Source of the DNA: a virus
IMG/VR virus record: IMGVR_UViG_3300025435_000016
Location: 1 to 64,000 of that record
Direction: 5' to 3' (one strand)
DNA: 64,000 bases
The notes below the pieces were generated by a model, which saw only the letters and a list, made by a program, of their open reading frames with translations, made no database searches and was not told the origin of the DNA. Position numbers and translations under genes: made by a program. Below, piece after piece: positions 2,937-39,817 of the stretch (position 1 is the first letter of the stretch; each line of letters starts with the position of its first letter).

Positions 2937-3308
2937 TTAATTGTTTCTAGACTTTTCACGAGTCTTAAACTTTTCGTTCCAAACCCTAGCGTCTTCAACA
3001 ACACTAGGGTTTACGTATTGATAGTTACCTAAGTGACCGAAAAGAAGGTGACATATAACCCCATCGTTACTATTCTCACATAAGGTTATTAGATTTGTAG
3101 GGTCTAACTCCTTTTCTGGATCTCTAGCAAAGGGAACTATATGATGAACTTCTAAGTCAATTGTCGATCCACATACTTCACACGTTGGATGATCTTTAAG
3201 ATGCTCCTTCCTTACCTTCGGCCACTGATTACTTCTTAATTGACCTGCAGGGGCTTTACCTTGATATACATCTTTGAGATGTTTGGAGAGAACTTTTAAT
3301 CTTGACAT
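2937..3308 (-). CDS. HNH endonuclease
   Basis: CEVCG..LEVHHIVP...NLITLC...CHL. Confidence 0.85.
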   Translation of the reverse strand: MSRLKVLSKHLKDVYQGKAPAGQLRSNQWPKVRKEHLKDHPTCEVCGSTIDLEVHHIVPFARDPEKELDPTNLITLCENSNDGVICHLLFGHLGNYQYVNPSVVEDARVWNEKFKTREKSRNN

Positions 3309-3343
3309 ATTATTATTTAATACATTGATTATTAGCCTTATAA

Positions 3344-3351
3344 TATAAATA
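3344..3351 (+). promoter_or_regulatory. T4-like late promoter
   Basis: TATAAATA 6 nt before ATG. Confidence 0.7.
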
Positions 3352-3357
3352 ATCTTA

Positions 3358-4548
3358 ATGGCTACAGCATCAGTTATTAAGCTTAAGGTTCGCAGAGGTT
3401 CAGACGCCAGTCGTCAGCTTGTAATCCTCGACCAGGGAGAAATTGGTTATACAACAGATTCAAAGCGTTTATTTGTTGGAGATGGTTCCACTGCCGGTGG
3501 AATTAGTACTGGGGCCAAGTTCTACGTAACTCCTACTGGTATTCCTGCTGCGGTAGTAAATGGAGCTGATTTACTCTATACAATACAAACAGGTGATATT
3601 GTGTATGATACCTCAACTAACCCTACACACTTTTATATCCTAACAGGTAGTAACTCTGGGTTTAATAGTCTGGCCTCTTACGCACCGCTTGTTGTTACAC
3701 AGACAAATACAATTTACTATAATGTTAGTAGCACAGTAACAAGCTCGTTGGCAATAAGTGCAATAACTCCAACGATATCTGGCAATCAAACAATCTTCAC
3801 TATTACCGGGGCTGCATCTGGATCCGTGTTCAATCAAATCCAAAATCTCGTTGCCGGTGTTAGTGCTAGTACAGACGTATCTATCTATAACGATTTAGGA
3901 GTCAATTACGTTGACCTTGGTATTAACAGCAGCAAATATAATGGTAATTCTTATGGCCCTGTCTTCAACGTAGTTGGACCTAACGACTCTTATCTATTTG
4001 CTACTACAGCGAATTTTGGCATTGGTAATACCGGTACTAACGGAGACTTAATATTCTTTACAGGTGGGTCGCTCTCTGGTGTCAAAGCATCAGGCGGCAA
4101 TGAAGTAATGAGAGTTACTAACTCCAATGGTACCTACTCTGGTAACGTTGGTATCGGGACTTCAACTCCAGGAGTAGCATTAACAGTTAACGGTGCTATT
4201 AGCTCAAATAATAATATCTACGCTAACGGAAATGTTTTCGGTGGTACAAATATAAATGTACTCAACGGCACATCTTACACGATTCAATTATCAGATAATG
4301 GCGGAACGATTGCATCAACAAATACCACTACCGGTTTAACAGCACTTGTCAATAGCACTGGGTACCCTGTTGGTTTCCAAACAGCTGTCATACAATTGAG
4401 TACGGCACGTGTTGCCTTATCTGGTAACGGGTTTAGTGTAAACCAAGCGAATTTATTCTATAAGACAACAAAGCAATACTCCGCAGCAACCCTACTTTAT
4501 ACTGGTACTATTGGTGGTTGGGTAGTGTTTGGTGATGTGAGCGCATAA
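3358..4548 (+). CDS. fibre protein with Mtd_N/hyaluronidase-like N-terminal anchor
   Basis: LKVRRG...LDQGEIGYTTDSKRLFVGDG; GNVGIGT beta repeats. Confidence 0.75.
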   Translation: MATASVIKLKVRRGSDASRQLVILDQGEIGYTTDSKRLFVGDGSTAGGISTGAKFYVTPTGIPAAVVNGADLLYTIQTGDIVYDTSTNPTHFYILTGSNSGFNSLASYAPLVVTQTNTIYYNVSSTVTSSLAISAITPTISGNQTIFTITGAASGSVFNQIQNLVAGVSASTDVSIYNDLGVNYVDLGINSSKYNGNSYGPVFNVVGPNDSYLFATTANFGIGNTGTNGDLIFFTGGSLSGVKASGGNEVMRVTNSNGTYSGNVGIGTSTPGVALTVNGAISSNNNIYANGNVFGGTNINVLNGTSYTIQLSDNGGTIASTNTTTGLTALVNSTGYPVGFQTAVIQLSTARVALSGNGFSVNQANLFYKTTKQYSAATLLYTGTIGGWVVFGDVSA

Positions 4549-4553
4549 TAATT

Positions 4554-5477
4554 ATGTTTTTATCACGCATAGGTTCAAGTGCTATAACTTCATATACAGT
4601 TGATACTGATGTACAGACGTACTTAAATGCTGTCAAGATAGCTGGTGGTTCATATGATGGTATAACTCTCGATGCTTTCAACACATTTGTAACGGGATTG
4701 AAGAATGACGGGTTATGGAGTTTATGTGATGAAATTGGCGTATTCGCCGGTATTCAAATAAAGGCATCTCTTAATCCTATTTTAATAAAGTTAAAATCTG
4801 CTCCCGGTAGCGTTTCTTCAGCAGCAAATACAGGCTTTGTAGCAGCTAATTATCAATCAACAGGCCCTTATACAGGTTTATCAGGTAACGGTAATTCAAA
4901 GAATCTTCAGCTAGGCTTTAATCCAACAACAATGGGAACAATGCTTAGTACCAATCTGCACATGATGGTTTATGTAGATGGGCCTGAGCGTGATACATCT
5001 GTTATCAGGTTTCTTATTGGATCACGAAATTCTGGTAACTTCAATCAAAGATCGTTTATCGCATATTCTACGCTTTCAGGTATTAACTACGGTGCAGCTC
5101 CATATGGTACGAGTCCATCTTCATTTGCAAATGGAGCTGCTCCTAATCCTCCAGCAGCATTTTATCCGAGCACCCCACAAGGTCCGTCTCTCATGTTATC
5201 ATTAACAGGCGACCTGTATACTCATTTTTATACCAACGGTGTAGAACAAACACCACCAGGTTATCAAGGTACCTCACCTGCAGCTTTTTATAATGGTAAC
5301 TTTTTGCTTTTTACTAGTAATGATGGTTCTGTTGCCGCTACACAGAGATCAACACGTATAATAAGAGGCTATTCTTACGGTCAAGGAATGCCAACAGTAT
5401 CAGCTGCTCAATATAACTATCGTTGGAATACGTTAATGAATACATTCGGTGCTAGTGCTTTAAATACTTCATTCTAA
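4554..5477 (+). CDS. putative virion lectin-like protein
   Basis: S/T/G/N-rich; AFNTFVTGLKNDGLW; structural cluster. Confidence 0.5.
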   Translation: MFLSRIGSSAITSYTVDTDVQTYLNAVKIAGGSYDGITLDAFNTFVTGLKNDGLWSLCDEIGVFAGIQIKASLNPILIKLKSAPGSVSSAANTGFVAANYQSTGPYTGLSGNGNSKNLQLGFNPTTMGTMLSTNLHMMVYVDGPERDTSVIRFLIGSRNSGNFNQRSFIAYSTLSGINYGAAPYGTSPSSFANGAAPNPPAAFYPSTPQGPSLMLSLTGDLYTHFYTNGVEQTPPGYQGTSPAAFYNGNFLLFTSNDGSVAATQRSTRIIRGYSYGQGMPTVSAAQYNYRWNTLMNTFGASALNTSF

Positions 5478-5493
5478 CCAATAAATATAGTTA

Positions 5494-5844
5494 GTGAACT
5501 ATATTACTCTCACCTACCCACAAACCGCGTCTATTCAATTTGAAGGATGTATGTTTGATCATGTAGCGCAAGTTTTTTTAAGTTCAGGTAATGTTAATAT
5601 TTTTCCGTCTATAACCGCTATTAATGCTTTTACTAATAATGCGAAGGTGTCATCTCTATTTCCTGCTTTTTCTGGTTATTCTCTACCCTCTAACTATTTT
5701 TATTCGACAGACAAAAATCATCTATATGTAACAATACCGAGCTTTAATGTAAACTGTATAATAGATGTTATTATCTATAATGCAGCCGGCTACAGTACAT
5801 TATCCCAAAAAGGGTATCTCATAAATAATTCCGTTACCTCATAA
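5494..5844 (+). CDS. Ig-like structural protein
   Basis: late box upstream; DVIIYNAAGY. Confidence 0.45.
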   Translation: MNYITLTYPQTASIQFEGCMFDHVAQVFLSSGNVNIFPSITAINAFTNNAKVSSLFPAFSGYSLPSNYFYSTDKNHLYVTIPSFNVNCIIDVIIYNAAGYSTLSQKGYLINNSVTS

Positions 5845-29508: not shown

Positions 29509-29599
29509 AAGACCTGCCCGGATTCGAACCGAGATTTCTGGATTATCTATCCAACGGCTAAGGTATAAGCTTAGTGTTTTACCCTTAAACTACAGGTCC
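29509..29599 (-). tRNA. tRNA with TAT anticodon (nominal Ile) and long variable arm
   Basis: GGACCTG/CAGGTCT acceptor; CTAAG-CT-TAT-AC-CTTAG; 24-nt extra arm; TTCGAAT; no CCA. Confidence 0.75.
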
Positions 29600-36103: not shown

Positions 36104-36138
36104 CAGATGATTATATATCTTTTATACATTATAGCAAG

Positions 36139-36173
36139 AAAAACCCCTACTACCTGATCAGGGCAATAGGGGT
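36139..36173 (-). terminator. intrinsic terminator closing the RNA operon
   Basis: ACCCCTATTGCC...GGTAGTAGGGGT then TTTTCTT. Confidence 0.8.
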
Positions 36174-36486
36174 GAGTTCGAACTCTGTTTTCCATTTCTT
36201 TATCTCTCTGCATTTTAGGGATAGCGACTCCTTTCCGGACTTGAGACCGGCAACTGGTAGCATTACTAAAGAGGTGATTGAAAGGATTTTATTCCGGATT
36301 TTGTTCCTTCCTTAACGGAGATCAGGCATGGAGCCTCTACTTCCGTCCAGCTTGTGTTTAATCAATACGTTAGGATCAAAGCTTACCGTAGGTGTTTGGC
36401 TCCCCTAACTTGAATAAGGACTACTAACATACCAACAAGCAACTCATCCTTACCCCTCTCTAGGATAATTCCTACAACTAGAGAGT
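36174..36486 (-). ncRNA. unidentified ~310-nt structured RNA
   Basis: no sense ORF, raised GC, multiple helices, potential GGAGCC/GGCTCC loop-loop pair. Confidence 0.6.
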
Positions 36487-36496
36487 ATTAATTTTA

Positions 36497-36605
36497 TGAC
36501 CGGGGTGGTTAATCCATCCTTGTGCAGCGGTTGATAAACGCGTTTTAGAGCAACCTAGTCACCCGCACGTACGGTAGCTCTTTCGATCGAGCCTGCGAAC
36601 GGTCA
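36497..36605 (-). ncRNA. unidentified 109-nt four-way-junction RNA
   Basis: closing TGACCG/CGGTCA plus three hairpins. Confidence 0.6.
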
Positions 36606-36618
36606 AATTATTAAAATG

Positions 36619-36633
36619 TACTATCAAAGATCA
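36619..36633 (-). promoter_or_regulatory. boxA-like element
   Basis: TGATCTTTGATAGTA, identical to 37645-37659. Confidence 0.65.
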
Positions 36634-36647
36634 ATTCTTATTCTCTT

Positions 36648-36676
36648 AATATAGTGCCTGAATAAGGAAGTGGCAA
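36648..36676 (-). promoter_or_regulatory. sigma70-type promoter for ncRNAs
   Basis: TTGCCA-17(cttcctt...)-TATATT. Confidence 0.6.
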
Positions 36677-36684
36677 CTAAAAAA

Positions 36685-36758
36685 TGGAGCCTAGTGACAG
36701 AATCGAACTGTCAAGACGGATTTACAAAAACCGCATTATACCATTTAATTAACCAGGC
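36685..36758 (-). tRNA. tRNA-Thr(TGT)
   Basis: TT-TGT-AA loop, TTCGATT, CCA; one mismatch in anticodon stem. Confidence 0.85.
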
Positions 36759-36763
36759 AAATT

Positions 36764-36836
36764 TGGCAGAGGAAGGAGTTGAACCTTCTATTTCAACGTT
36801 ATGAGCGTTGCGAGATGACCGTTTCTCTACTCTGCG
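36764..36836 (-). tRNA. tRNA-Met(CAT), initiator-like
   Basis: C1xC72 mismatch, A11-U24, CT-CAT-AA; no CCA. Confidence 0.8.
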
Positions 36837-36844
36837 TTAAAAAA

Positions 36845-36968
36845 TTGTAAGTTCCTTTGTCCTAAAAACTTGAAGCGTCCTTCATTATGTATTAGTTTTG
36901 TACGAACTTACGACGAACCGGTTCCATGCATACAACCTTTCGAACAGCTGTAGAGAGGGTTTTGCCGA
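36845..36968 (-). ncRNA. unidentified ~125-nt two-domain structured RNA
   Basis: TACAGC/GTTGTA, GTAAGTTC/GAACTTAC, AAAACT/AGTTTT, TGAAG/CTTCA stems. Confidence 0.5.
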
Positions 36969-36996
36969 TTACTGTAAAGTGGTGGAGGCGAGGGGA

Positions 36997-37202
36997 CACT
37001 TAATCTCTAGCTTTCGCTAAAGCGTGGACTATATCTTCACCCGTAAGGGTGTTGGATGCTCTAGCCGGTACTCCGGTAGTCTCTGCACCTTCCTATTTCT
37101 AGGCTCGGCTCAGTATTGCCATATTGCTTTCGCAATTTAGGTTTCACTGAATTCTTCCAATTTATTCATTATCTATTACTAGATAAGTCGACCTGCATGT
37201 TG
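36997..37202 (-). mobile_element. group I intron (206 nt, no ORF) in tmRNA T-loop
   Basis: P/Q/R/S cores AATTCAGTGAA, AATACTGAGC, GCAGAGACTA, AAGATATAGTCC; exon ends U, intron ends G; removal restores AGGGG-TTCGATT-CCCCT. Confidence 0.9.
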
Positions 37203-37432
37203 ATCGAACCCCTGTGTTTATACTGTTAGGCTTGTACATCTACACGCTTAGCTAGCTTTCGTACTTTGGTTGACTAAAGGTAACCAGGCACCAGCGACCT
37301 ATCCATGTTTAGAGTCCTACCTATGCAGATGGAAGAGCTCTGCATAACCCCTTGCACTTATTTTAAAGGTATCACAAGTTCTACCTTACCTATTATTTTT
37401 CCAAAAGCGTAATAGGATCTGCTTTTGGTTCC

Positions 37433-37540
37433 TTAGGCTGCGATAGCGAGAGGAGCCATTTCGTCACAGAGACAGAACTCTGTGATTGTATTGACTGCCT
37501 TCTTTACCTTGGCGAGGATTGCGTTGACGTTAGTCTTTGC
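37433..37540 (-). other. tmRNA tag reading frame
   Basis: ATAAAC|GCA resume context; AKTNVNAILAKVKKAVNTITEFCLCDEMAPLAIAA*. Confidence 0.8.
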
Positions 37541-37638
37541 GTTTATGTTTTGATTAGCTTTTTAAAGTGGCCAACTAATCAACCACTACGTGCAATACAA
37601 GTTTCGAGTATAAGTCGAATCCAGTACGCCCCCAAAAT

Positions 37639-37676
37639 TATTTATACTATCAAAGATCATTTGTCCTAATGGACAT
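37639..37676 (-). promoter_or_regulatory. tmRNA leader: hairpin, boxA-like element and late promoter
   Basis: TGTCC-ATTA-GGACA, TGATCTTTGATAG, TATAAATA. Confidence 0.6.
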
Positions 37677-37706
37677 TCTATTAATATATAGTCTATTTTA
37701 AGAAGC

Positions 37707-39082: not shown

Positions 39083-39817
39083 ATGAATTATAATAAAATT
39101 TATGATAACATTATTAGCCGCGCAAAAGAACGCGGTGCAATGAATGCTTATACGGAAAAGCATCATATTATTCCACGTTGCATGGGAGGCAATGATGACA
39201 AGATAAACTTAGCTGTATTGACACCAGAGGAACATTTTGTATGTCACTTGTTATTATTGAAAATGTATCCAGATAATAAAAAGTTAGCGTATGCAATAAG
39301 GGTGATGTGTGGTGAAAGCGCACCCACTAATAAACGTAATAATAAACTCTACGGGTGGCTGAAGCGTAGGATATATAGGAACAAAACAGTAAAAACATGC
39401 TCCACATGTGGTAATAACTTCTCTATATCATTCTGTTCATTAAAAAAGCAATTTTGTAGTAAGAAGTGCCATGATATTAATCAACGAAAATCGCGTATTA
39501 AGAAGATATGTAAAACATGTAACATGATTTTTTATGCACCACTTAGTAAGAATCTGAAGCAATTCTGCAGCATAGATTGCTCTGCAAAAGATAGAGAAAT
39601 AAAAATAATAAAAACATGTTTAGTGTGTAACCGTCAATTTAAAGTGCTACCTTCTATGAGTTTTATTAAATGCTGCAGTAGAGCGTGTGCAGATACAAAC
39701 AAAATTAAAAAAATTATAAAAACATGTCCTCTCTGTAATACACAATTTCAAGTTGTTCCTAGTAAGAAAAAGATATTCTGTAGTAGAAGTTGCTCAAAAC
39801 GCAAACATATACAATAA
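39083..39817 (+). CDS. HNH homing endonuclease with tandem CxxC...FCSxxC repeats
   Basis: YTEKHHIIPRCMGG...NLAVLTPEEHFVCHLLL; lone + strand insertion. Confidence 0.85.
   Translation: MNYNKIYDNIISRAKERGAMNAYTEKHHIIPRCMGGNDDKINLAVLTPEEHFVCHLLLLKMYPDNKKLAYAIRVMCGESAPTNKRNNKLYGWLKRRIYRNKTVKTCSTCGNNFSISFCSLKKQFCSKKCHDINQRKSRIKKICKTCNMIFYAPLSKNLKQFCSIDCSAKDREIKIIKTCLVCNRQFKVLPSMSFIKCCSRACADTNKIKKIIKTCPLCNTQFQVVPSKKKIFCSRSCSKRKHIQ

Follow-up and report, generated by a model that had tools for sequence, protein, structure and literature searches.

Genes for tmRNA occur in three recognised forms, of which the intron form is one (PMC11915505). Its earliest description concerns Clostridium botulinum (ref. 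11 in PMC11915505), the species that a sequence-only reading of the locus reported here had named as the known case of a T-loop intron. That attribution is right, but the form is far better known than it implies: a 2025 census holds 883 unique intron-form sequences from 21 bacterial phyla, with introns at four T-loop subsites (position 7 being the main one), a mean intron length of 293 nt and an endonuclease gene in 4% (PMC11915505). In the published literature we found no phage tmRNA of the intron form; the census included RefSeq viruses in its processing but makes no statement in its text about viral intron forms (PMC11915505). We also ran a pattern scan on one genome per prokaryotic species, which yielded 101 contigs; in at least 20, the layout is TTCGAT / intron ending in G / N + T-stem. 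These bacterial cases come from Clostridium, Neobacillus/Bacillus, Omnitrophota and Poribacteria, and their introns are 253-302 nt long.

The window analysed here (the whole stretch of DNA, 64,000 nucleotides) belongs to a 76.4-kb IMG/VR metagenome assembly that is ~35% complete according to CheckV. It holds what is very probably a working phage tmRNA of the intron form, one that would splice by means of a group I ribozyme and whose intron would be a mobile selfish element, now or until recently. Bacteria were already known to have intron-form tmRNA; the phage, for which the evidence is strong, is a new host for this known gene form.

The gene is surrounded by phage genes, including those for endonuclease V, a 5'-3' deoxyribonucleotidase, a virion structural protein and Hsp20, as well as a homing-endonuclease-like ORF. 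ARAGORN places eight tRNA genes on the tmRNA strand, two of which follow the tmRNA gene. Throughout the family, the tmRNA is flanked by deoxyribonucleotidase (dNMPase) and endonuclease V genes at one end and, at the other end, by tRNA genes, orf366 and hsp20. In the GenBank phage collection, the intron core matched only twice, over 48 nt each time, and we found no related tmRNA and no cultured relative.

Some other features of the region are recorded here as side observations. Upstream of the tmRNA there is a sigma-70-like site (TTGAGC-16-TATATT, 37710-37683), and the sequence TATAAATA at 37639-37646 (-), which we take to be a T4-type late promoter word, ends 5 nt ahead of the first G of the tmRNA and is not strictly kept in relatives. 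Downstream of tRNA-Thr, the stretch 36136-36676 (-) lacks ORFs and may be a non-coding RNA; what resembles a promoter lies at 36676-36648, and a strong hairpin resembling a terminator at 36173-36143. Finally, ARAGORN reports a 91-nt tRNA at 29509-29599 (-) whose anticodon is UAU and whose extra arm is unusually long for tRNA-Ile.

Table 1. Features of the interrupted tmRNA gene and of nearby endonuclease genes (positions refer to the window unless a related locus is named).
Feature	Position	Strand	Details
Interrupted tmRNA gene, whole	36980-37633	-	654 nt, 448 nt when spliced; RF00023 match
5' exon	37203-37633	-	Acceptor strand GGGGGCG, GGAUUCGAC motif, PK1, tag frame, further pseudoknots; ends with 5' T-stem strand AGGGG and T-loop nucleotides 1-6 (UUCGAU); placed by Rfam and family alignments
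Tag reading frame	37433-37540	-	Resume codon GCA at 37540, after AUAAAC (Rfam alignment)
Group I intron, ORF-less	36997-37202	-	206 nt; RF00028 match; pairs conserved in 5 variants
P1			Exon UCGAU with intron GUCGA; U.G wobble at 5' splice site
Internal guide GUCGA	37188-37192	-	Pairs with exon UCGAU, 37207-37203; from sequence
P2			UUAUCUA/UAGAUAA, 7 bp; GUAA loop
P3			UUGGA/UCCAA
P4			UCAGU/ACUGA
P5/P5a			GAAA loop
P6/P6a			GAAA loop
P7, 5' strand GACUA	37077-37081	-	Partner UAGUC, 37031-37027; guanosine-binding helix
P7.1			Hairpin CCGG-AGUA-CCGG, between P7 and P3'
P8			CACCC/GGGUG
P9			7 bp; GAAA loop
3' exon	36980-36996	-	T-loop nucleotide 7 (U), CCCCU (3' T-stem strand), CGCCUCC (3' acceptor strand), ACCA; from sequence
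Homing-endonuclease-like ORF	39083-39817	+	244 aa; phrog_655, E 3e-46; no Pfam match
HNH gene by tmRNA	L006:240-620		
HNH gene by tmRNA	L028:5254-5622		
HNH gene by tmRNA	L043:6349-6711		
HNH gene by tmRNA	L048:4284-4685		
HNH gene by tmRNA	L125:5627-6076		

On the minus strand, the gene reads ...ACAGGGGTTCGAT / 206 nt (37202-36997) / TCCCCTCGCCTCCACCA. The interruption falls between T-loop nucleotides 6 and 7, and excising 36997-37202 gives the 7-nt loop UUCGAUU while also uniting the 5-bp T-stem (AGGGG/CCCCU), the 7-bp acceptor stem with its G3.U pair, and ACCA. Only once this segment is removed is the Ala-type tRNA-like domain complete, as the ARAGORN drawing depicts it, in agreement with the restored T-arm and Ala-type acceptor that the sequence-only reading had described. 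The last base of the intron (36997) is G, and moving the borders by one base breaks both the rule of a U.G pair at position -1 and the terminal-G rule. The 17-mer that makes up the 3' exon also terminates 102 uninterrupted tmRNA genes among IMG/VR loci.

Covariance models recognise both the intron and its host gene, and their matches are far beyond chance. Rfam's Intron_gpI model (RF00028, gathering cut-off 50 bits) aligns to 37237-37005 over its full extent (model positions 1-253) with 84.6 bits and an E-value of 4e-20. The tmRNA model (RF00023, gathering cut-off 47 bits) matches 37625-37201 with 53.0 bits and an E-value of 5e-18, with the gene still interrupted. The earlier claim of a group I intron inside a tmRNA therefore has both models above their gathering scores behind it. 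For one related intron (L232), RF00028 reports nothing at gathering settings, yet that intron aligns in full. The published tmRNA_intron covariance model, which is absent from Rfam, uses criteria of at least 150 bits and at least 500 bp (PMC11915505), and the gene's length of 654 bp satisfies the size criterion.

ARAGORN behaves differently. It reports no tmRNA on the native sequence, even with the threshold at 80%, and none on the spliced sequence with default thresholds. At 95% of the default thresholds, however, it finds a tmRNA on the in-silico spliced sequence with exactly the ends proposed earlier (37633-36980), an acceptor stem of 7 bp that includes G3.U, and a T-stem of 5 bp, though its choice of tag differs from the Rfam-placed tag and is probably wrong. 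At default settings it misses most uninterrupted relatives too, making it a poor judge for this tmRNA family. The suggestion that the split hides the gene from standard finders is thus only half right: ARAGORN is indeed blind to it, but Rfam still detects it, and ARAGORN overlooks most intact relatives as well.

We assigned the intron's helices by hand, guided by the Rfam alignment, and all the elements that had been listed from the sequence (P1, P2, P3, P7, P8, P9 and the terminal G) were found (Table 1). The wobble pair at the 5' splice site is formed by U37203 of the exon and G37192 of the intron. In the Rfam alignment, P7 is part of the conserved core. Folding by energy alone yields P1, P2, P4-P5, P6a, P7.1, P8, P9 and, spanning the intron, the T-stem (z = -3.25). 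P10 is weak: the 3' exon UCCCC can make no more than 1-2 pairs with the nucleotides that precede the guide on its 5' side. The region 36104-37706 is free of ORFs of at least 50 aa, which bears out the statement that the intron has no endonuclease ORF.

The fold can be compared across five distinct IMG/VR variants of the intron: those of the window, L028, L012 (identical to L009), L232 and L233. The 62 proposed pairs give 310 cells over the five variants, 99.7% of which are standard pairs. Compensatory changes affect both partners in three pairs (G-C to A-U via G-U in P5a, C-G to U-A in P8 and C-G to U-A in P9), and two further pairs have single wobble-compatible changes. When the partners were slid by 1-3 columns as a control, pairing was 28-41% and there were zero compensatory changes. 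P1 pairs are invariant, P7 keeps 5/5 pairs in every variant, and P3, P4, P5, P6 and P7 do not vary at all among the five, so P3-P7 are uninformative on the fold, for or against. The only compensatory change within the core is that in P8, those in P5a and P9 falling outside it. The other variable sites are in loops and joining regions, several of them being swaps of one GNRA loop for another (e.g., GUAA/GCAA in L2, and UUAC/GUAA/GCGA/GCAA in L8). Because the five variants are closely related, shuffle statistics alone carry little weight, but the pattern of variation is that of a constrained ribozyme.

The tag frame of the window has 35 codons (AKTNVNAILAKVKKAVNTITEFCLCDEMAPLAIAA), encodes a tag ending in LAIAA and closes with the stop TAA at 37435-37433. 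By comparison, the commonest tag length in the published census is 10 (PMC11915505). In all relatives, including L043, L048, L006, L078, L125, L085, L067 and L002, the frame is open for 33-35 codons, and the relatives' tags end in LAA, IAA, MAA, AAA or FA. Among intron-bearing alleles, the 35-codon frame persists and the tag codons differ by 5-7 synonymous changes versus 3 non-synonymous ones, so selection still acts on the host tmRNA gene where it carries the intron. Across the family alignment, the arms of PK1 co-vary (e.g., GAUUAG/CUAAUC versus GAUCUG/CAGAUU). Two flavours of tag were seen in the phage family, a basic one (AKTNVNAILAKVKK...LAIAA, as in the window) and an acidic one (AEDNTDALLAEAEY...LLAA). 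The tags of the window (basic) and L233 (acidic) are unrelated, though the intron is common to both. SmpB (PF01668) was searched for in this record and in five related ones, including a complete one of 218 kb, and none was found, so the function of the tmRNA would depend on compatibility with the host's SmpB.

To find relatives with and without the intron, we scanned IMG/VR with the 5' 20-mer of the tmRNA, with the 3' exon and with a pattern of the intron plus 3' end. The search for intron-less alleles that the sequence-only reading had proposed was productive: eight loci at the same genomic position have an uninterrupted gene, representing seven distinct alleles (L043, L048, L004/L006, L078, L125, L085 and L067). 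These orthologues are 433-460 nt long and score 112-115 bits with RF00023. The 206-nt intron is in five loci (L028, L009/L012, L232 and L233). The base at position -1 follows the intron exactly, being U in every intron-bearing allele (TTCGAT/T) and C in every uninterrupted allele of the family (TTCGACT or TTCAACT).

The single strongest piece of evidence is the pair of L233, with the intron, and L043, without it. They are 100% identical over 3,901 nt, a stretch that ends just short of the -1 base, and the spliced tmRNA of L233 equals the natural gene of L043 at 450/451 positions, the sole difference being the -1 base (U versus C). With RF00023, the gene of L043 scores 114.8 bits and the interrupted gene of L233 54.7 bits, so the window's score is the one expected of a gene that is interrupted but otherwise intact. 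Beyond the CCA end, L233 and L043 share no similarity, and their breakpoint (L233:3902 / L043:6835) is the intron site. The two loci therefore differ by a recombination event and not by a clean insertion alone.

Other insertions occur in the same gene. In L002, a different intron of 654 nt, also ending in G, occupies the same T-loop junction (L002:3010-3663). It contains an antisense 136-aa ORF (3161-3571, -) with a weak LAGLIDADG match (20.8 bits versus a cut-off of 23.1), and Rfam scores its 3' part alone, at 22.4 bits. The 5' end of this insert resembles clostridial tmRNA introns (…AAAGAGTCGCC). The same locus has a Pistol ribozyme match at L002:2145-2212 (+), with 59.7 bits (cut-off 34.5), ~380 nt upstream of the tmRNA. 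The tmRNA gene of L232 (5076-6318, +) is interrupted twice, by the 206-nt intron in the T-loop and by a ~590-nt cassette in pseudoknot 1. This cassette carries a 179-aa HNH-type ORF (5206-5745) and has complementary ends (GTGCTGGTATTCCC... / ...GGGAGTATCAGCAC).

Relative to the window, the intron is more conserved than exon 1 in each comparison (97.6% versus 86.8% identity for L028, 95.1% versus 82.9% for L012 (= L009) and 92.7% versus 76.9% for L233; Fisher p from 4e-7 to 9e-6), a gap for which stronger constraint on a compact ribozyme, and not recent transfer, could be partly responsible. The neighbouring proteins of the window are nearer to those of intron-less phages than to those of intron-bearing ones, with orf366 being 91-92% identical to that of L043 and L048. 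Together with the unrelated tags and the L233/L043 pair, the conservation gap and the neighbour proteins point to recent gain or loss of the intron by recombination. We also sought a source for the intron. The fetched bacterial subsite-7 introns share only core stretches of 21-43 nt with it, and non-tmRNA phage introns that share a 20-mer with it (L008-L013) likewise have only short core stretches in common; neither group supplied one.

Small HNH genes adjoin the tmRNA gene in five related loci from four distinct phages (Table 1). They encode proteins of 120-149 aa that match PF01844 with 25-27 bits, and they share the tmRNA's strand and follow it closely, with at most one tRNA gene in between. 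Such a gene is present with the intron in L028 and without it in L043, L048, L125 and L006, while the window and L009/L012 have the intron and no HNH gene. In the window, no endonuclease gene adjoins the tmRNA, and among relatives we found the intron and an adjacent HNH gene together in L028 only. The window's homing-endonuclease-like ORF lies among conserved genes on the strand opposite to the tmRNA, and a search of the related loci found no counterpart in any of them; it looks like a recent free-standing insertion. We considered it as the intron's partner and set it aside, given its distance of 1.45 kb and its absence from all related loci.

The mechanism that we propose is as follows. The primary transcript would carry the 206-nt ribozyme at subsite 7, and the intron would fold. 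P1 would present the last exon U in the U.G wobble, where an external guanosine would attack, after which the freed 5' exon would attack behind the terminal G, and ligation would rebuild the T-loop UUCGAUU and the T-stem. The expected ligated junction is GGUUCGAU-UCCCCUCG, i.e., GGGGUUCGAU-UCCCCUCGCC in reads. Only after splicing could the RNA be charged with alanine (via G3.U) and act with host SmpB in trans-translation, and the rescued protein would receive an unusually long tag of 35 residues. The intron itself would be a selfish element that moves, or recently moved, among diverged tmRNA alleles of large freshwater phages.

This proposal has to be weighed against the alternatives. An assembly chimera, in which a tmRNA was joined to an unrelated intron, would be conceivable in a metagenome assembly that is only about a third complete, but it is refuted by independent contigs with the same junctions, and we give it practically no weight. 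Freshwater metagenome contigs from two other samples match 36900-37508 and 36900-37245 with zero differences, and both intron borders are crossed, so the layout is not an assembly artefact; moreover, five further IMG/VR contigs from different samples have identical junctions. That the intron no longer splices and this tmRNA copy is a dead, decaying remnant strikes us as improbable, given that five intron variants keep every core helix and show compensatory changes, that the tag frame is open in intron-bearing alleles with mostly synonymous changes, and that the Rfam intron match is both full-length and high-scoring. The weak P10 would suit a decaying intron, as would the spliced form's score under ARAGORN's default threshold; that low score, however, reflects an unusual family, since most uninterrupted relatives are missed too. 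A dead gene would also agree with the lack of spliced RNA in the one RNA run (X24), whose contigs stop short of the junction: a 376-nt contig of a relative lies over 37422-37562, in the tag region, with the T-arm and splice sites outside its coverage, and a 34-nt core match in the same run comes from some other intron, so the run weighs on splicing in neither direction.

A further alternative accepts splicing and differs on why the intron is there and how it spreads. The intron may benefit the gene by dividing its T-arm DNA and so removing the target of homing endonucleases or integrases that act on tmRNA 3' ends, or it may spread by means of free-standing HNH endonucleases. The latter would be collaborative homing, in which an ORF-less phage group I intron is mobilised by a neighbouring free-standing endonuclease, as with the psbA intron of cyanophage S-PM2 and F-CphI. 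PF01844 HNH genes just downstream of the tmRNA in L006, L028, L043, L048 and L125 favour this alternative, as do the extra HNH cassette within the L232 tmRNA gene, the break in L233/L043 identity exactly at the intron site, and the -1 base that switches together with the intron. However, the HNH genes and the intron do not co-occur consistently across loci, and the window's tmRNA has no adjoining endonuclease, the nearest such ORF being over a kilobase away and having no counterparts. On balance we think this alternative unlikely, though well short of negligible. Shielding of the 3' end by the intron, which had been suggested from the sequence, is not far-fetched, because HNH genes lie just downstream in five related loci. 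Taken further, several selfish elements may be competing for the T-loop of phage tmRNA genes, namely the ORF-less 206-nt intron, the LAGLIDADG-bearing intron and the HNH genes beside or inside the gene, with HNH endonucleases helping the intron to spread or the intron shielding the gene. The -1 C-to-U change and the identity break at the insertion site would then be repair scars. We offer this contested-site idea tentatively, as a minority view.

If our preferred reading (a working, self-splicing phage tmRNA with a selfish intron) is correct, a phage ribosome-rescue RNA would work only after RNA splicing, and the intron form of tmRNA, catalogued in bacteria so far, is extended to large phages. 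Phage tmRNA genes of this form are under-counted, because the one here escapes ARAGORN and clears the cut-off of the Rfam tmRNA model by a margin of just 6 bits. The set of loci, which holds uninterrupted alleles, two different introns that occupy one site and a pair of loci whose identity ends where the intron is inserted, is a natural system for the spread of an endonuclease-less intron between phage genomes. What it adds to the known cases is a series of intron-plus and intron-minus alleles and a link between the intron and the -1 base, in an intron that at 206 nt is among the more compact group I ribozymes.

Of the known systems, bacterial intron-form tmRNA has the same host gene, the same loop and the same subsite 7 (the internucleotide position between nucleotides 6 and 7). 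It also shares the -1 U paired with a G of P1, the terminal G, P7.1 and, mostly, the lack of an endonuclease gene, and 20 fetched bacterial examples have an identical TTCGAT / ... G / N-CCCC layout. The differences are the phage carrier, the intron's length (206 nt versus 253-302 nt in the fetched examples and the published mean of 293) and the length of the phage tmRNA itself (448 nt, with its 35-residue tag). Collaborative homing resembles our locus in that an ORF-less intron sits in a phage gene, HNH genes adjoin the tmRNA in several relatives, the intron's presence is polymorphic and a flanking exon base changes with it. It differs in that the window has no adjacent endonuclease gene and intron and HNH gene are not consistently paired across loci. 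Finally, the group I introns of tRNA anticodon loops are likewise compact ribozymes (~200-250 nt) in a loop of a tRNA-shaped domain, where exon structure helps to define the splice sites and the -1 U and terminal-G rules apply; here, in contrast, the loop is the T-loop of a tmRNA, and P7.1 is present between P7 and P3'.
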